Positions 1,710 through 43,998 of a stretch of DNA of 43,998 bases are shown in pieces. The position numbers and the translations under genes are program-made. The stretch is from a virus. Taxonomy: Duplodnaviria > Heunggongvirae > Uroviricota > Caudoviricetes. How positions within the stretch are numbered: position 1 is the first letter of the stretch; each line of letters opens with the position of its first letter. The DNA is taken from the IMG/VR virus record IMGVR_UViG_2671180473_000007, one strand, 5' to 3'. The notes beneath the pieces were generated by a model. That model ran no database searches, was not told where the DNA came from, and was given only the letters and a program-made list of their open reading frames with translations.

Positions 1710-2072
1710 GGGGCTGATTCTGGATTCGACGGGATTTGCGAAACCCAAGGTGCATGCCGAGGGGCGGTTGGCCTCGTAAAAAGCCGCAAAAAATAGTCGC
1801 AAACGACGAAAACTACGCTTTAGCAGCTTAATAACCTGCTTAGAGCCCTCTCTCCCTAGCCTCCGCTCTTAGGACGGGGATCAAGAGAGGTCAAACCCAA
1901 AAGAGATCGCGTGGAAGCCCTGCCTGGGGTTGAAGCGTTAAAACTTAATCAGGCTAGTTTGTTAGTGGCGTGTCCGTCCGCAGCTGGCAAGCGAATGTAA
2001 AGACTGACTAAGCATGTAGTACCGAGGATGTAGGAATTTCGGACGCGGGTTCAACTCCCGCCAGCTCCACCA
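1710..2072 (+). ncRNA. ssrA: tmRNA (SsrA), 363 nt
   Basis: Begins GGGGCTGATTCTGGATTCGACGGG and ends GGTTCAACTCCCGCCAGCTCCACCA; internal tag-peptide reading frame gcaaacgacgaaaactacgctttagcagcttaa (ANDENYALAA*) at 1799-1831. Confidence 0.96.
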
Positions 2073-7102: not shown

Positions 7103-9157
7103 TTACGCGTTATTCACTTCCACCACGATACTGTCAATCAGTACCGGGTAAGTCGCATTTTTAGTGATATCGGTCACGCGCAACTTGTCTGCCGTAAACG
7201 TGCCGACCGGAGACTGCGACAGCATGAATGGTGTCCCGTCCTTACCATCAATGACCGGCGTCACCTCAATACTGTTGTTACCGGCAAAACGGAAGCCCAG
7301 CGTATGCCATTCGTTATTAAATGCGCCGAATGACCCCAGCTTCGTGTTCTGCGCCGTGTTTCCTTTGTGATACATCACGTTAAGGTCTGTGGCATCGCTC
7401 TGTACGTAGAACGATGCCAGCAGGTTATGACCGGCATTTCCTTCCAGAGTAACCCCTTGCGGCAGGGCAGAAACCGGCCAGTACAGCGCCAGTGCGTACT
7501 GATTAGCCGTAAGCGCGCCATCGAGTTTAAAACGACAACTGACAAGACCACCTTTACCCAGCAGGTCCGCACCATTACCAGCATCATGCTCAAGGTACCA
7601 GGGGGCTCTTCCTGTTTCCTTGGTCAGTTTCATTGCCTTACCCCCGCTGGCTCCGGCATCATCCACGATTTGAGCCTTGCCACCTCCGGCAGCCCAACCC
7701 TGTGGTGTCAACCGTCCTTCAGACTCAGATGCCCGGTAAGCAAATAGCGTACTCATCGTCGTGGTGTCTGCGGGTGGCGTGGACGGTTTTGATGGTGTAT
7801 CAGGTGACGGCTTCTCATCCGGTGGTGTCACGGTCTGCCCACGCATCAGTTCAGCCGTGCGCCCTGCATGGAGCATAATAGCTGAGGCCAGACGGTCTGA
7901 AATGACGCCCCTGCGTGCCCATGAGCTGAAATGGCTGTCACGCTGTGTCGAAACAAAACTGCCCTGGGTTCGGGATGCTGCACCGTAATACCCGACAGCC
8001 ACAATATCCGGGTCTTCCGCCGGAGCATTCGTTGGCGTGCTCTGTCCATTCTCATCCGTCAGGAACGGTACAAAGAAAATTTTCTGTGCTTCCTTGCCTT
8101 TGTAGCCACCGTATACTGCCTCATATTTATCGGTGCCAGCGTTTTTCCAGTAATACGTGGTATCACCGCAAATCCACGGCACCGTGGTGGCATTTCCACT
8201 CACGCACTGCGCAGCAAGCGGAGCCAGGTCAGTTCTGAACTGCTGAACCATGGCCGTGAATAAACTATTATGCTGCTGGCTTCCTGAGGCAAGGTCTGCC
8301 TCTCCCTGCATCCAGACCACAGCCAGAAGTTTGTTTTTCGGGTTTTTCGCCAGCGCGACTTTGGTGCGGCTTACCAGGTCCTGATACAGAGGTTTACCGG
8401 CCCCCCAGCGTGAAGAATCAGCGGAAGCACCGCTGGCCTCACTGAATGAGCCGTCGGCTCCAGTGGTGAATGCTGACCCGCCACGACAACAGGGCACCAG
8501 AAGTATCCCGGCATTCTGTGGGATATAGGGAAGCAGTTTTTTGGCAATATGCAACCCCTGACCGACAGTCCCGTACTGGCCTTTTGCCAGATCAGCTTTC
8601 GGGTGGTTTATCCCGCTCATATCCTGAACATCATGCAGGCAGTGGTCTGCCGGAATGATGTCGTTGTATGTACACGACGTACCGTTGGGCGTTACCGTAC
8701 TGCGGCGTGCCAGTTGCTTAATGCGTGGGTCCGGGCGGTCAAACGAATCCGGTAACGGCAGCCCCTCGCCGTAGGCCATGCCATTTGACTGACCCGCGAG
8801 AATGACAACAAAGTAATATTCCGGCTCTGAACTGCTGCCATTCGTGCTACCGGAAGGCCCGGCGTTATCCGGTGCATTCCAGTCGGAGGGCGTGAGCGTT
8901 CCGGCCACGTCAGATGTGATTGGAATGATGCCAGTCACGCCTGAACTGGTGATTTCTGCACTGGGATTACCGGATACCGGCATTACCCATAATGGCTCTT
9001 TCGTGCTGAAGCGGATCACGCAGTCTGCGAAGGTGATCCCCCCTTTATTACCCGAAGGGCGGAAAGGGCTTTCAATAAATGCCACCGTGCCACCGGCAAC
9101 CTTGACTGAAAACTCTCCGGGCATGGCGGAGAGCATTTTCCACTTGGAGTCTGACAT
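7103..9157 (-). CDS. SASA/SGNH-family carbohydrate esterase (prophage NanS-p-like sialate O-acetylesterase candidate) with C-terminal lectin-like domain
   Basis: 684-aa ORF; VILAGQSNGMAYGEG resembles the GQSNM catalytic block of sialate O-acetylesterase-type domains, with WMQGEAD and DHCLHD further on. Sits between gin and mom, where Mu has no gene. Confidence 0.6.
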   Translation of the reverse strand: MSDSKWKMLSAMPGEFSVKVAGGTVAFIESPFRPSGNKGGITFADCVIRFSTKEPLWVMPVSGNPSAEITSSGVTGIIPITSDVAGTLTPSDWNAPDNAGPSGSTNGSSSEPEYYFVVILAGQSNGMAYGEGLPLPDSFDRPDPRIKQLARRSTVTPNGTSCTYNDIIPADHCLHDVQDMSGINHPKADLAKGQYGTVGQGLHIAKKLLPYIPQNAGILLVPCCRGGSAFTTGADGSFSEASGASADSSRWGAGKPLYQDLVSRTKVALAKNPKNKLLAVVWMQGEADLASGSQQHNSLFTAMVQQFRTDLAPLAAQCVSGNATTVPWICGDTTYYWKNAGTDKYEAVYGGYKGKEAQKIFFVPFLTDENGQSTPTNAPAEDPDIVAVGYYGAASRTQGSFVSTQRDSHFSSWARRGVISDRLASAIMLHAGRTAELMRGQTVTPPDEKPSPDTPSKPSTPPADTTTMSTLFAYRASESEGRLTPQGWAAGGGKAQIVDDAGASGGKAMKLTKETGRAPWYLEHDAGNGADLLGKGGLVSCRFKLDGALTANQYALALYWPVSALPQGVTLEGNAGHNLLASFYVQSDATDLNVMYHKGNTAQNTKLGSFGAFNNEWHTLGFRFAGNNSIEVTPVIDGKDGTPFMLSQSPVGTFTADKLRVTDITKNATYPVLIDSIVVEVNNA

Positions 9158-25804: not shown

Positions 25805-25925
25805 ATTGCCTCCGCATAAAGGATGAATATAAAATAAACAGGCGGTCAGTGTACGCTTAACTGGTAAAGTCGGTGCCTGCCTCCGGGTGGATCATGTATG
25901 CGGGTTCGACCCCCGCCACTGACCG

Positions 25926-33386: not shown

Positions 33387-33809
33387 TCAGAAAAGCCGTG
33401 GCTGCGTGCGTTCCTGATGCAGGCGACGCTGGTTGCGGATAACGGAGTAAATCTGCGTCTCTGACATCTGGTAGTGGCGGCGCAGGGTTTCAATTTTTTC
33501 GCCCTGGCTCCAGCGGGAAAAAATTTCATTATTGCGCAGTTCGGTGAAAAGGGATTCACCGACCGGGAGATAATAACCACGCCCGCCCATGTACCCGGCC
33601 TGTGCGGCTGCAACCTTACGGGCAAGCATTCCCGCCTGAGCAGGTTCAATCCCCTGACGGTGCAGTTCAGCACTGATCACATCAACCAGGTCCCGCAGCG
33701 TGCCGGGCCAGTTCTTTTTCAGCTCATCATCAGGAATATCATCCAGACGGTCAATCAGCGCGTGCAGCTGTTCGCTGTCACCAAACATGCTCATCTGTGT
33801 TTCAGCCAT
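33387..33809 (-). CDS. Mor/C-family transcriptional activator (late-gene activator candidate)
   Basis: 140-aa ORF with C-terminal HTH-like region ...LRRHYQMSETQIYSVIRNQRR, directly upstream of the lysis genes. Confidence 0.7.
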   Translation of the reverse strand: MAETQMSMFGDSEQLHALIDRLDDIPDDELKKNWPGTLRDLVDVISAELHRQGIEPAQAGMLARKVAAAQAGYMGGRGYYLPVGESLFTELRNNEIFSRWSQGEKIETLRRHYQMSETQIYSVIRNQRRLHQERTQPRLF

Positions 33810-33879
33810 ACCCGCCTCCGGTCATCATTACACAGGGCAAGTTTAAAATAAAAATCCCGCGCTGTGGCGGGATTTGGGG

Positions 33880-34392
33880 TTAACGGGGGAATGATTTTTC
33901 ATACAGCCTGCAAACACGCTCATAACTCATCACTGCACGTTCCGACATATCCAGGGCTGCCAGCATTTTGCGGCGGTGCCAGCGTTTGAGACGCTCCAGC
34001 ACATCAGAGGCCAGCGCGGGTTGTTGCTCCAGCCACTGCCAGTTAGCCACACCTTCGCCGTCGTTCTGCGCGGCCGTCTGCGATTTCACCCAGCGGTTAA
34101 GGGCCGTTTCCCCGCCATCAGAGATAAATCCCTGCCGGTGCATCACTTTCCAGATGGCGCGAATTTTGGCGGTCACCGTACCCGGTTTTAAGGCCCGGTT
34201 AACCGGCTTCTGACGCACTTTAAAACCGCGTTTTTTGAAAACATCCAGCACGCGGGATAACTCACCGGGTGACATATCACGGCAACTGGATTTGCCGGTG
34301 GCTGCCAGCAGCGCGGATGTATAGGTATCATGGTCAAGCTGTAGATCGCGTTTTGCGACATGTATTAAGGTAATCAGGGAAGCGCGATTCAT
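33880..34392 (-). CDS. gemA: GemA-like regulatory protein (Mu gp16 family)
   Basis: 170-aa ORF immediately upstream of the Mor/C-family gene. Confidence 0.6.
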   Translation of the reverse strand: MNRASLITLIHVAKRDLQLDHDTYTSALLAATGKSSCRDMSPGELSRVLDVFKKRGFKVRQKPVNRALKPGTVTAKIRAIWKVMHRQGFISDGGETALNRWVKSQTAAQNDGEGVANWQWLEQQPALASDVLERLKRWHRRKMLAALDMSERAVMSYERVCRLYEKSFPR

Positions 34393-34403
34393 TATCGTGG
34401 CTC

Positions 34404-34434
34404 CATAAAAAATGGGCGGTGTTACCGCACCGCC
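34404..34434 (-). terminator. Rho-independent terminator (minus strand) inside the early region
   Basis: Perfect 7-bp stem ggcggtg/caccgcc (34415-34421/34428-34434), loop ttaccg, followed on the minus strand by auuuuuuau (plus-strand ataaaaaat 34405-34413). Confidence 0.55.
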
Positions 34435-34462
34435 ATGTCAATTAACATAAAAGGAAAAATCT

Positions 34463-34702
34463 ATGTCAGATATAAAAAATGCACTTGATGTTGCCGCATT
34501 CACAATGGCTGGAAATCTTATGGTAACCCTGTTCGATAAGGGGCTGATTTCCCGTGAGGAGGCAATACATATTATCAATCTCGCTCAAAAAAACTCTACC
34601 CCGGAAAATGCAGAAGATATCCAGGATGGCTCATATATTAATACCGACTGGCATTTCGACAATCTCCGGGCCTGTATGGGGATTACCGCTGAAAAAGATT
34701 AA
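34463..34702 (+). CDS. Hypothetical protein (79 aa), opposite strand to the phage early operon
   Basis: ATG with AAAAGGAAAAA RBS; AT-rich local composition; convergent with and overlapping 34683..34970 by 20 nt. Confidence 0.45.
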   Translation: MSDIKNALDVAAFTMAGNLMVTLFDKGLISREEAIHIINLAQKNSTPENAEDIQDGSYINTDWHFDNLRACMGITAEKD

Positions 34703-34970
34703 AAATTTTTGCATAATGTTCAGATGTAAGAATTGCTGAACCATCAACACCGAGCCTACGGCGAACGTATTCCTCGCGGGCTATTTTATTATCCAGAGAT
34801 ACAGCATCCTTAATCAGGTTAATCTCCCGCTCCATTATCAAAAGGGCTTCTCTGGCTGCAAGATTTTCTTTTATCGCATATTCGATAATGTCCCGCATAC
34901 GTTCAAGCATGCCGATTTTAGCCAGTTCTTCGTCGATAGATTTAGGCGCAAATTTGATTTCTTTTTCCAT
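34683..34970 (-). CDS. Hypothetical protein (95 aa)
   Basis: ORF track 34683..34985 trimmed to the ATG at 34970, coupled to the upstream small ORF stop (TAATATG) with AGGA upstream; AT-rich. Confidence 0.5.
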   Translation of the reverse strand: MEKEIKFAPKSIDEELAKIGMLERMRDIIEYAIKENLAAREALLIMEREINLIKDAVSLDNKIAREEYVRRRLGVDGSAILTSEHYAKIFNLFQR

Positions 34971-34971
34971 A

Positions 34972-35115
34972 TTATTCATCCTCACAATTTATACATGCAG
35001 TGTCGTCGCCCATATCGCAGTGGTTACATTTTATCTCACCACAATGTGGGCACTCTTTCAGATACTCCGGGTCCTCATTTCCACAGGTGGGACATTCAAC
35101 AATTTGCTCATCCAT
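34972..35115 (-). CDS. Small Cys-rich zinc-ribbon-like protein (47 aa), absent from the ORF track
   Basis: My translation: MDEQIVECPTCGNEDPEYLKECPHCGEIKCNHCDMGDDTACINCEDE (eight Cys in CxxC-type pairs); start overlaps upstream stop (ATGGATGA), stop overlaps downstream start. Confidence 0.5.
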   Translation of the reverse strand: MDEQIVECPTCGNEDPEYLKECPHCGEIKCNHCDMGDDTACINCEDE

Positions 35116-35440
35116 TATGTATCCCCTGTAATTCCGGCAAGGCCGAAAGATGGCACCAGTGCGTCACCTGTCCGTCCTCATCTTCAAGGCAGGCTCCGGT
35201 TTCTTCATCAATAAAAAAGCCTTCATACCCCATATGGCCGATGCGCAGTTCCTGTTGGTCACCATACTGAACAATCAGCACGACAGCCTCCATATCAGGC
35301 GGAAATGCGTCATCCAGTGAATGCCAGGGATAACCGCGCAAATCCCCGAAATAAACGCCGGTCAGCGTTCCGCCACAGAGCGGCATTCCGGCGGCACACA
35401 CAAGAGGTTCATCTGATTCAACAAATAAGGTCGTTATCAT
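35108..35440 (-). CDS. Hypothetical protein (110 aa)
   Basis: ORF in operon context, translationally coupled to the downstream small ORF. Confidence 0.5.
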   Translation of the reverse strand: MITTLFVESDEPLVCAAGMPLCGGTLTGVYFGDLRGYPWHSLDDAFPPDMEAVVLIVQYGDQQELRIGHMGYEGFFIDEETGACLEDEDGQVTHWCHLSALPELQGIHNG

Positions 35441-35988
35441 GGCGTTAACTCCCGTAATACAGCGTCCTCGGCAGTCCGGCGACGGTAATAAACTGCGTGA
35501 GCAGAATGTTCAGATATTCCAAACTTTTCGCCAATTTCCCGGAATGACAGACGGCGTGGGTAATCGGAATCACGCAGCTCACGTATAAGACGTACATCAT
35601 CATCAGATATGCGCGTGCCGGGGCGTAACTCTCCGCACTTTGTTAATCCAGCACCAATCATTCCTGCCCGACATCTGACAGAATCTTTATTACGTCCGAG
35701 ATATTCTCCCATTTGCTGGCAGGTCATTGTTCTGGCATTTTTTCGAATAAACTTATCTTCATCAGGTGTAAATCTTGGGTGTTTATATTTCAGTAACTCC
35801 GGGTATGAACTGCGCAATACACCAGTCCGGTTATATACAGCCCAGACAGTTCTTTTTATTCTGGCAGCAATATCCTTAACCGGGGTGGATGAATAAAGCG
35901 CAATCAGCAGCGCATCTTCTTCAGGTGTCCACGGACGGACATGAGCGGGGGCGCGACCTTTTAGTCCCATGGGTTGTAATTTCATCAT
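35437..35988 (-). CDS. Putative DNA-binding protein with C-terminal HTH
   Basis: 183-aa ORF; two W/FTPEED-like repeats and C-terminal LSFREIGEKFGISEHSAHAVYYRRR resembling an HTH. Confidence 0.45.
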   Translation of the reverse strand: MMKLQPMGLKGRAPAHVRPWTPEEDALLIALYSSTPVKDIAARIKRTVWAVYNRTGVLRSSYPELLKYKHPRFTPDEDKFIRKNARTMTCQQMGEYLGRNKDSVRCRAGMIGAGLTKCGELRPGTRISDDDVRLIRELRDSDYPRRLSFREIGEKFGISEHSAHAVYYRRRTAEDAVLRELTP

Positions 35989-43371: not shown

Positions 43372-43692
43372 CCTGGTTATATGTCGCCAGTCGATACCTT
43401 CCAGCAGCATCGCCAGCTGCGCCTGTGTAAGGAACACTTTGCCATCACGGGCTGACGGCCAGGCGAAGCGCCCACGCTCCAGCCGTTTGGTCAGGAGGCA
43501 CAGTCCGTCACTGGTGGACCACAGCAGTTTAACCTGACTGCCGCTGCGGCCCCGGAAAATGAAAACATGGCCGGACATGGGATCGTCTTTCAGCGCCGTC
43601 TGTACTTTCGCAGCCAGGCCGTTGAAGCCATTTCTCATATCGGTGATACCGGCAACCAGCCAAATTTTGATCCCGGAAGGTAACGGGATCAT
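43369..43692 (-). CDS. IS66-family TnpB (Orf2)
   Basis: 107-aa ORF with WLVAGITDMRNGFNGLAAKV...GHVFIFRGRSGSQVKLLWSTSDGLCLLTKRLERGRF, characteristic of IS66 Orf2; its stop abuts the phage terminus. Confidence 0.8.
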   Translation of the reverse strand: MIPLPSGIKIWLVAGITDMRNGFNGLAAKVQTALKDDPMSGHVFIFRGRSGSQVKLLWSTSDGLCLLTKRLERGRFAWPSARDGKVFLTQAQLAMLLEGIDWRHITR

Positions 43693-43998
43693 CGCTTCAG
43701 TTCCTGTATCAGCAGAGTCAGGAGCTTTTCGCTGACATTGCCATTGAAGCGGAGCGTCCCGTGCCGGAACGTTACCTCACAGCTGATACTGAGGGTTTTC
43801 GGGTCCTCTGCGAGCGATTCTGGCTGTTCGGCAGCTGCATCGAGAGTCACAGGAAGTAGCTGGGGGCTCTCTGAAGAAGGTAATAGCTGAGGTGTACTGG
43901 CAATAGCGGACACTACCATTTGTTCTTTTTTTAAGCAGCCATCTGATGATATTTTTCCCTGAAGGCTGCCGGGGAGATATTCCCCAGACGAGAGTGAC
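43372..43998 (-). mobile_element. IS66-family element, tnpA-tnpB portion (continues beyond window)
   Basis: tnpA and tnpB ORFs; the expected tnpC is replaced by the Mu-like prophage end at 43371. Confidence 0.7.
43689..43998 (-). CDS. IS66-family TnpA (Orf1), 5'-partial at window edge
   Basis: Track ORF 43689..43919 with frame open upstream to the window end and no RBS before the first ATG; overlaps tnpB by 4 nt as usual for IS66. Confidence 0.6.
   Translation of the reverse strand, partial: SLSSGEYLPGSLQGKISSDGCLKKEQMVVSAIASTPQLLPSSESPQLLPVTLDAAAEQPESLAEDPKTLSISCEVTFRHGTLRFNGNVSEKLLTLLIQELKR

Follow-up and report, generated by a model that had tools for sequence, protein, structure and literature searches.

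A small gene that faces against the early operon of a Mu-like prophage raises the question of whether it is a gene at all and, if so, what it does there. The prophage lies in the IMG/VR virus record IMGVR_UViG_2671180473_000007, the whole analyzed stretch of which (43,998 nucleotides, nt) is referred to here as the window, and the gene in question is a 79-amino-acid (aa) open reading frame (ORF) on the plus strand, i.e., against the phage-forward direction, which is the minus strand of the window. The initial annotation considered a plus-strand gene in a Mu-type early operon unusual and suggested an accessory module such as superinfection exclusion, anti-defence, or a toxin-antitoxin-like pair. 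Comparison with related phages pointed to a more conserved arrangement. Specifically, the 79-aa ORF is a divergent allele of Mu gp15 (Mup15), which is itself a reverse gene, and a gene of this type recurs wherever a homologue of Mu gp14 was found, bar two Yersinia phages. The locus is the distal end of the Mu-type early (Pe) operon together with its boundary with the gemA-mor unit. In phage-forward order, it comprises a 110-aa gene, a gp13/E14-type zinc ribbon, a gp14/E15-type helical protein, the opposite-strand gp15-type gene, a hairpin, and gemA. The ORFs and features described by the initial annotation were all located where it had placed them, and the main elements of the locus are the following.

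34463-34702, plus strand: 79-aa acidic helical protein, divergent allele of Mu gp15 (Mup15); phrog_32893
34683-34970, minus strand: 95-aa helical protein, homologue of Mu gp14 (E15); phrog_6075
34683-34702: tail-to-tail overlap of 20 nt between the gp14-like and gp15-like genes, from the ORF coordinates
34465-34850: hypervariable allelic cassette (3' half of the gp14 homologue and whole gp15 homologue), delimited by the drop in identity to the relatives L011 and L012
34972-35115, minus strand: 47-aa protein with four CxxC pairs (eight cysteines), homologue of the C-terminal core of Mu gp13 (E14); phrog_5584
35108-35440, minus strand: 110-aa acidic early gene with a weak DUF551-like C-terminus; phrog_6925
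34405-34434, minus strand: G+C-rich hairpin with a T-rich tail, directly 5' of the gemA ribosome-binding site, from a terminator scan and covariation
33880-34392, minus strand: gemA (gp16 family), downstream of the hairpin; Pfam GemA, E-value 1.8e-28

Direct pairwise BLAST between the 79-aa protein of the window and Mu gp15 was not significant. The two are assigned to one type on the basis of an intermediate allele, profile-profile comparison, and structural similarity. The intermediate, a 92-aa ORF of L011, has an identity of 41% with Mu gp15; aligned by hhalign, the window-type family and the Mu/SfMu/L011 type gave a probability of 96.9% (E-value 1.7e-10, 56 columns), and Foldseek matched the AlphaFold2 (AF2) model of the 79-aa protein to Mu F-134/Q38493 with a TMq of 0.60. 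Mup15 (NP_050619.1) is an 88-aa reverse-strand ORF (complement 7896-8162 of NC_000929) that was named F-134 in the 1991 left-end record M64097. Counterparts are annotated on the reverse strand as SfMu_16 in SfMu and as a hypothetical protein in Yersinia phage Tongde. The window gene shares with Mu gp15 the reverse orientation between gp14 and gemA, the tail-to-tail overlap with gp14, the same conserved hairpin before gemA, a homologous N-terminal region of ~56 residues, and a small helical product. On the other hand, the C-terminal half is unrelated, a ..dWHxDNL.. motif occurs in the window type only, the protein has 79 aa as opposed to 88 aa in Mu, and the overlap with gp14 is 20 nt as opposed to 62 nt.

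A full HMMER scan of 1.84 billion representative proteins retrieved only nine members of the 79-aa family, and a profile-based search of 5.8 billion sequences retrieved 17 clusters, with a ..dWHLDNL.. motif present in most members. Gp15-type proteins range from 67 to 119 aa; their N-terminal ~45-55 residues are conserved, with the motif fD.aAF.l.GN.L..L..KG.i...eA..I, while the C-terminus is variable.

The four ORFs of the cluster are all real genes, as the initial annotation had proposed. Compared with close relatives, the 79-aa ORF had a ratio of nonsynonymous to synonymous substitution rates (dN/dS) of 0.17-0.33 in its own frame, which was the lowest or near-lowest of the six frames. The three minus-strand ORFs had values of 0.11-0.37, among them 0.11-0.18 for the 110-aa ORF and 0.17-0.26 for the 47-aa ORF. 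Each of the four has a good ribosome-binding site and matched a PHROG family with E-values from 1e-26 to 1e-51 (1.3e-45 for the 79-aa ORF), all of these being families of unknown function. The convergent gene has its own Shine-Dalgarno sequence, AAGGA at 34451-34455, and such a sequence precedes the gp15 ATG by 6-9 nt in all of the variants compared. In E. coli genomes, the Prokaryotic Genome Annotation Pipeline (PGAP) calls the 79-, 95-, and 110-aa ORFs hypothetical proteins. Scans of all proteins with Pfam, NCBIfam, and PADLOC gave no match above threshold for the cluster genes, profile searches against PDB sequences gave no significant match, and an Rfam scan of 33700-35600 gave sub-threshold chance matches only. 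The window copy is a new and divergent member of known but uncharacterized families, and in itself mostly an ordinary finding: a local allele of a gene already annotated as hypothetical in the Mu RefSeq record and in E. coli genomes.

Among the database variants of the 79-aa protein, five rare ones (P0005 and P0007-P0010) are frameshifted at differing sites, including the A7 run at 34587-34593, and four of the five pass into another frame, open as far as 34739. A programmed frameshift in this run was rejected, as the frameshifts are rare and occur at several sites.

In all contexts examined, the gp15-type gene lies on the strand opposite to the Mu-type early operon, convergent with a 95-121-aa gene whose 3' end it overlaps, and in E. 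coli prophages and metagenomic contigs it is usually directly upstream of gemA. The convergent partners are homologous to each other, and the overlap, 20 nt in the window, spans 32-98 nt in relatives (62 nt in Mu). This succession of a gp14 homologue and an overlapping reverse gp15-type gene was observed in Mu, D108, SfMu, Yersinia Mu-like phages, E. coli prophages, and 18 IMG/VR loci. Among the latter, which are the IMG/VR loci with a gp14 homologue, a gp15-family ORF directly downstream and on the opposite strand was detected by hidden Markov model in 16 of 18, and in the remaining two, inspection by eye revealed a reverse ORF carrying the family motif. In L016, the same arrangement is followed by a DUF2786 gene instead of gemA. 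The zinc-ribbon gene lies next to the pair in Escherichia-type phages, but two lineages at a greater distance have no such neighbour, which points to the gp14/gp15 convergent pair as the constant core. The only exceptions to the pairing are the Yersinia phages vB_YpM_23 (L026, 1450-1510) and vB_YpM_3, in which gp15 was lost through a clean deletion between TGAT repeats and gp14, the hairpin, and gemA were retained intact. Since both form plaques, gp15 is not required for lytic growth, and gp14 is independent of it.

These comparisons show that gp13-gp14-gp15-hairpin-gemA is the normal, ancestral organization of Mu-type phages, in which a reverse gene is not unusual, contrary to the initial annotation. 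Gp15 is ancestral to Mu, D108, and SfMu and not a recent insert. Many E. coli relatives nevertheless do without the gp13-gp15 unit and carry instead an unrelated colinear 103-aa gene (phrog_17269) coupled to gemA. Seen as a possible moron, the locus is AT-rich, with a GC fraction of 0.39-0.43 over 34400-35150 versus 0.50-0.58 in the flanks, and replaced in many relatives, yet the reverse gene has neither a promoter consensus nor an own-strand terminator downstream. The accessory module of the initial annotation stands as regards the dispensability of gp15, the replacement of the unit in many E. coli relatives, and the hypervariability of the gp14 C-terminal half and gp15, but not as a recent insert, its content being ancestral to Mu-type phages. 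Two scans of genome contigs for a wider host range found no relatives.

In three relatives (L005-L007, from E. coli CP55_Sichuan, M3, and STEC2018-607), other reverse-strand genes of 140 or 113 aa, with no family matches, occupy the space between gemA and mor. These different reverse genes suggest that the gemA neighbourhood is a recurrent site for opposite-strand cargo.

The annotation of the model phages does not reflect this organization uniformly. On the one hand, RefSeq NC_000929, SfMu, and Tongde retain the reverse gene. On the other hand, the revised Mu GenBank record AF083977.1 has dropped gp15 in favour of a forward 55-aa ORF, Mu_54, at the same site, and the D108 records leave the site unannotated. 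Mu_54 had no significant homologue in relatives (E-value >= 0.08). No forward-strand frame is open across the gp15 region in any of nine lineages, so that none of them has colinear minus-strand coding sequence through the equivalent of 34463-34702, while the reverse ORF is intact in all nine. Furthermore, D108 (GQ357916, ~7853-8212) has a 119-aa reverse ORF with a gp15-family domain. Judged from these sequences, Mu_54 in the revised Mu record and the empty D108 annotation are probably wrong, and the comparison strongly supports Mu gp15 as a genuine gene, conserved and on the reverse strand.

What distinguishes gp15 from its neighbours is the extent of its divergence. A sliding-window comparison of the window with L011 and L012 showed identities of 28-57% between ~34850 (the middle of gp14) and 34465 (the gp15 start codon), and of 90-100% in the flanks; past the cassette, the spacer and gemA are 100% identical between the window and L011. 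The same pattern separates Mu from D108, with 30-56% identity across gp14 and gp15 (Mu 7650-8200) and 96-100% in the flanks. Altogether, there are at least four or five allelic types in the Mu-like phages of Escherichia, Shigella, and Yersinia. Gp15 is the fastest-diverging gene of the cluster, its identity falling to ~24% in comparisons in which gp13 retains 88%, and within an allelic type selection is purifying, with the dN/dS of 0.17-0.33 given above. These mosaic edges indicate that the 3' half of gp14 and the whole of gp15 are exchanged as one hypervariable cassette between otherwise near-identical phages. The recombining cassette is a rational target in the search for an accessory or conflict function in a model phage.

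The other conserved element of the locus is the hairpin at the boundary with gemA. The initial annotation had placed a strong minus-strand terminator here, and the terminator scan recovered a stem at 34434-34415 with seven pairs, six of them G-C (GGCGGTG...CACCGCC), followed by the tail CATTTTTTAT, which reaches 34405 and leaves 13 nt to the gemA start (34392). In 12 variants, the hairpin lies 25-35 nt from the gp15 start codon (~53 nt in L016) and 5-12 nt from the Shine-Dalgarno sequence of gemA, or of the DUF2786 gene in L016. Four different stem sequences keep the pairing, namely GGCGGTG/CACCGCC, GGCYGCGC/GCGYGGCC, GGCGGCT/AGCCGCC, and GGTGGCGG/CCGCCGCC. Across ten sequences, 95.7% of the alignment cells are paired, three pairs show compensatory changes, and none of 500 shuffles reached the covariation score. 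The element is thus terminator-like with a covarying stem. In the phage-forward direction, its tail is rich in T in most variants and weak in Mu and L009, and because of these weak tails the hairpin, which lies where the early operon meets the gem unit, probably terminates or attenuates transcription only in part. It is relevant to the insulation of gemA and mor from Pe.

Boundary terminators are known from Mu itself, i.e., t9.2 at Pm and the one before Plys, and the gemA hairpin resembles them as a G+C-rich hairpin with a T tail between temporal transcription units. Unlike them, it lies ~10-20 nt from the gemA ribosome-binding site, so close that no promoter fits downstream, and the annotated promoter is upstream of it or overlaps it. 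For this lack of room before gemA, we rejected the idea that the hairpin is an activator site serving a promoter beyond it, as is known from Pm and Plys. The promoter in question is a 'Semi-early promoter' feature of the Mu record AF083977.1 at 8151-8217, across the gp15-gemA spacer, and a title cited in PMC3820752 refers to constitutive expression of the gem operon in lysogens. Together, these place the reverse gene at an operon boundary and not deep inside an operon. In most variants, the forward strand has an AT-rich -10-like hexamer immediately next to the left hairpin arm (34436-34450 on the minus strand of the window), with the versions TAAATT, TAATAT, TAAAAT, and TAAATA among the window, Mu, L011, L013, L039, and L042. 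This hexamer may be the semi-early (gem) promoter annotated in Mu, and we infer, from its position only, that transcripts starting inside the left arm would escape termination. A plus-strand promoter match inside gemA (34302-34331) was discarded, not being evidently conserved in Mu when the 5' sequences of gemA were compared by eye.

The product of the reverse gene is predicted to be a soluble protein. It has an isoelectric point of 4.5 and a net charge of -7, and its maximum 19-residue hydropathy is 1.27, where ~1.6 would be expected for a transmembrane helix. The AF2 model has four helices with a mean predicted local distance difference test (pLDDT) score of 79, which exceeds 90 over residues 11-40. 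A membrane protein was ruled out, as the maximum 19-residue hydropathy (1.27-1.54) stays below ~1.6 and the hydrophobic run is of ~16 residues.

Taken as a whole, the explanation that we favour, and consider somewhat better than evenly probable, is that of a Mu-type gp15 at an operon boundary that encodes an accessory helical bundle, is antagonized by convergent transcription, and is followed by a partial terminator. In this explanation, transcription of gp15 would begin in the spacer of ~70 bp that parts it from gemA and would oppose the early operon. When Pe becomes active, the early transcript would cover all of gp15 in antisense up to the hairpin, so that expression of gp15 and of the early genes (gp14) would be mutually antagonistic through transcriptional interference and complementary 3' ends. 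Hence gp15 would mainly be a product of the repressed prophage or of a pre-early state. The hairpin would partly terminate or attenuate read-through from Pe before gemA, and the gem unit would have its own promoter in the spacer, as the Mu record indicates. The small acidic helical bundle would most likely bind another protein, which could be the variable C-terminal half of gp14 or a factor of the host or of a competitor phage, and its role would be accessory and rapidly diversifying instead of part of core replication.

Several points weigh against this explanation. In the window, Mu, L009, and L013, the sequence ahead of the reverse gene contained no detectable sigma-70 consensus promoter. 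The preference of AF083977.1 for the forward Mu_54 counts in the same direction, and the frameshifted variants could reflect weak constraint on gp15 in some prophages, or else assembly errors. That the gp14 C-terminus and gp15 vary together is in part a trivial consequence of the DNA that their ends share. Lastly, the expression of gp15 and its timing are inferred, and searches of the searchable literature for functional or expression data on Mup15, gp15, the gem operon, or Mu antisense transcription found none.

A bolder version of the favoured explanation, which we regard as rather unlikely in its full form, would make the tail-to-tail gp14/gp15 pair a conserved expression toggle that carries a hypervariable specificity determinant. 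Gp15 would be made by the repressed prophage, shut off by convergent transcription from Pe, and would mediate, with the variable gp14 C-terminus, an allele-specific interaction, e.g., one that excludes or protects from related transposable phages or a host defence. If true, this would explain why Mu and D108, which differ in few blocks, differ in this cassette, and would provide a function for a gene deleted from the current Mu reference annotation.

Among the alternatives, the one that survives best overlaps with the favoured explanation. It holds that gp15, by itself or together with the variable C-terminal half of gp14, determines superinfection exclusion, anti-defence, or defence, and that its alleles are exchanged because selection is diversifying. 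We regard it, too, as rather unlikely. In its favour are the sharp mosaic edges, with 28-57% identity inside flanks of 90-100%, the same replacement between Mu and D108, the four or five allelic types at least, and a small, acidic, dispensable protein encoded by AT-rich DNA. There is also a precedent in Pseudomonas phage Fc02, where opposite-strand overlapping genes mediate exclusion (PMC9936078). The Fc02 pair olg1/gene 10 resembles the pair described here in that both consist of genes that overlap on opposite strands and belong to the early or regulatory part of a Mu-like phage genome; one gene of the Fc02 pair is expressed from the prophage (PMC9936078), and the convergent arrangement implies reciprocal expression. 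However, the two pairs have no sequence similarity, the Fc02 pair is located beside the repressor and ner, and its exclusion activity has been demonstrated, whereas the pair in the window is known from sequence alone. Moreover, there was no PADLOC match and no likeness to known anti-defence or exclusion proteins, and a dN/dS of 0.17-0.33 within allelic types is a sign of purifying and not of positive selection. The specific functions offered by the initial annotation (exclusion, anti-defence, and toxin-antitoxin) thus gained no direct support, PADLOC, Pfam, and NCBIfam being empty and the predicted folds being generic helical bundles.

The toxin-antitoxin-like pair in particular, in which the gp14-like and gp15-like proteins would be cognate toxin and antidote with a ratio set by the convergent arrangement, is improbable. 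Its appeal lies in the near-obligate co-occurrence and tail-to-tail overlap of the two genes across lineages and in the joint inheritance of the gp14 C-terminal half with gp15. In being two small, adjacent, co-inherited genes, they recall type II modules, and their 3' overlap resembles the txpA/RatA-type geometry of type I modules. They depart from such modules in that each of the two encodes a protein of ordinary composition, in that they lack the co-transcription normal for such pairs, and in that one can be lost alone: the viable phages vB_YpM_23 and vB_YpM_3 keep gp14 intact after the loss of gp15, which excludes gp15 as an obligatory antidote, although gp15 as the toxin would still be compatible with this. 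In addition, no toxin-antitoxin or defence family was matched in Pfam, NCBIfam, or PADLOC, neither the 79-aa nor the 95-aa model resembles a known toxin fold, and gp14 should not be made in a lysogen in which Pe is repressed.

We consider it just as improbable that gp15 regulates the divergent gemA-mor unit or the hairpin, e.g., by binding the palindrome or hairpin or by modulating termination. Such a role would suit a gene that is always adjacent to and divergent from a gemA leader with a conserved dyad/hairpin, that keeps this arrangement in L016 although a DUF2786 gene replaces gemA, that is conserved in its N-terminal domain, and that borders on a spacer to which the Mu record assigns a promoter. 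However, gp15 is acidic and has no recognizable helix-turn-helix (HTH) or RNA-binding motif, alleles of ~24% identity stand beside a 100% identical spacer and gemA (window versus L011), and deletion of gp15 leaves viable phages. A DNA-binding regulator was ruled out on the acidity, the lack of an HTH motif, and the divergent alleles beside identical spacer DNA. Finally, that the plus-strand ORF is not a gene but a non-coding leader, an antisense RNA, or a forward small ORF (Mu_54) is very improbable, for against the choice of the forward 55-aa ORF over gp15 in AF083977.1, the silence of the D108 records, the lack of a consensus promoter, and the frameshifts in some variants stand a reverse ORF that is intact with its Shine-Dalgarno sequence in ~12 divergent lineages and conserved as protein down to ~25-40% identity, a dN/dS that is lowest or near-lowest in its own frame, and a Mu_54 without significant homologue (E-value >= 0.08) in a region across which no forward frame is open.

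The minus-strand genes that run towards gp15 have identifiable counterparts in Mu, with one exception. The 95-aa ORF, which closes the co-directional early run, is the homologue of Mu gp14/E15, sited downstream of the gp13 homologue, with 49% identity over 94 aa (tblastn) and a match to phrog_6075 at an E-value of 5e-44. Its AF2 model is all-helical with one long helix (pLDDT 87), and an alternative GTG start at 34985 would extend it to 100 aa. The 47-aa ORF is the zinc-ribbon core of Mu gp13/E14, with 88% identity to gp13 residues 20-60 (tblastn) and an E-value of 3e-26 to phrog_5584; matches to zinc-ribbon families of Pfam were weak only. All eight cysteines are kept in the four zinc-ribbon-bearing sequences of the family alignment, and the protein is predicted to bind two zinc ions. 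The initial annotation had noted this eight-cysteine ORF as missing from its ORF track, and PGAP omits it as well. Both genes share with gp13 (E14) and gp14 (E15) of Mu the order and the TAA-T-ATG coupling junction. Unlike Mu gp13, the homologue in the window has no 17-residue N-terminal extension and is parted from the gp12 homologue by two inserted genes, of 183 aa (HTH) and 110 aa, which are the extra genes relative to Mu.

The 110-aa gene is lineage-specific, and nothing in Mu corresponds to it between gp12 and gp13. Part of the interval, in most cases the 110-aa gene, is shared by 144 of 5426 complete E. coli genomes, but only 14 reach a coverage of >=80%. At the position equivalent to 35441, L010 and L011 have two further small genes. 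The junctions of the minus-strand run consist of an 8-nt overlap between the 110-aa stop and the 47-aa start, ATGGATGA, the TAA-T-ATG between the 47-aa and 95-aa genes, and a 4-nt overlap of the 183-aa HTH gene with the 110-aa start. These junctions fit translational coupling, as initially annotated, although the coupled run would include four genes and not three, the 183-aa HTH gene being the fourth. The remaining features of the neighbourhood are the following.

35437-35988, minus strand: 183-aa Myb/HTH-like gene; phrog_323, 'transcriptional regulator, D5-like'
33852-33875, minus strand: second strong terminator-like hairpin, between gemA and the Mor/C-family gene, from the terminator scan; z-score -4.1
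33387-33809: Mor/C-family activator gene of the gemA-mor unit, the only one in the prophage

In Mu, gemA and mor overlap, and Mor and C are separate proteins, whereas the prophage in the window has a seemingly single activator flanked by terminators. The Mu-like prophage is complete, extends from ~4742 to 43381 of the window, and matches a prophage of E. coli HH35 at 99.5% identity. Its flanks are unlike those around the near-identical HH35 copy. On the left, they include smpB, the ssrA transfer-messenger RNA gene (tag ANDENYALAA; 1710-2072, plus strand), and an island with tail-fibre remnants, and on the right (43382-43998) an IS66-family element. In the HH35 copy, PGAP annotates a 'tRNA-OTHER' among the head-morphogenesis genes, at the equivalent of ~25845-25924, where ARAGORN called no tRNA in the window.

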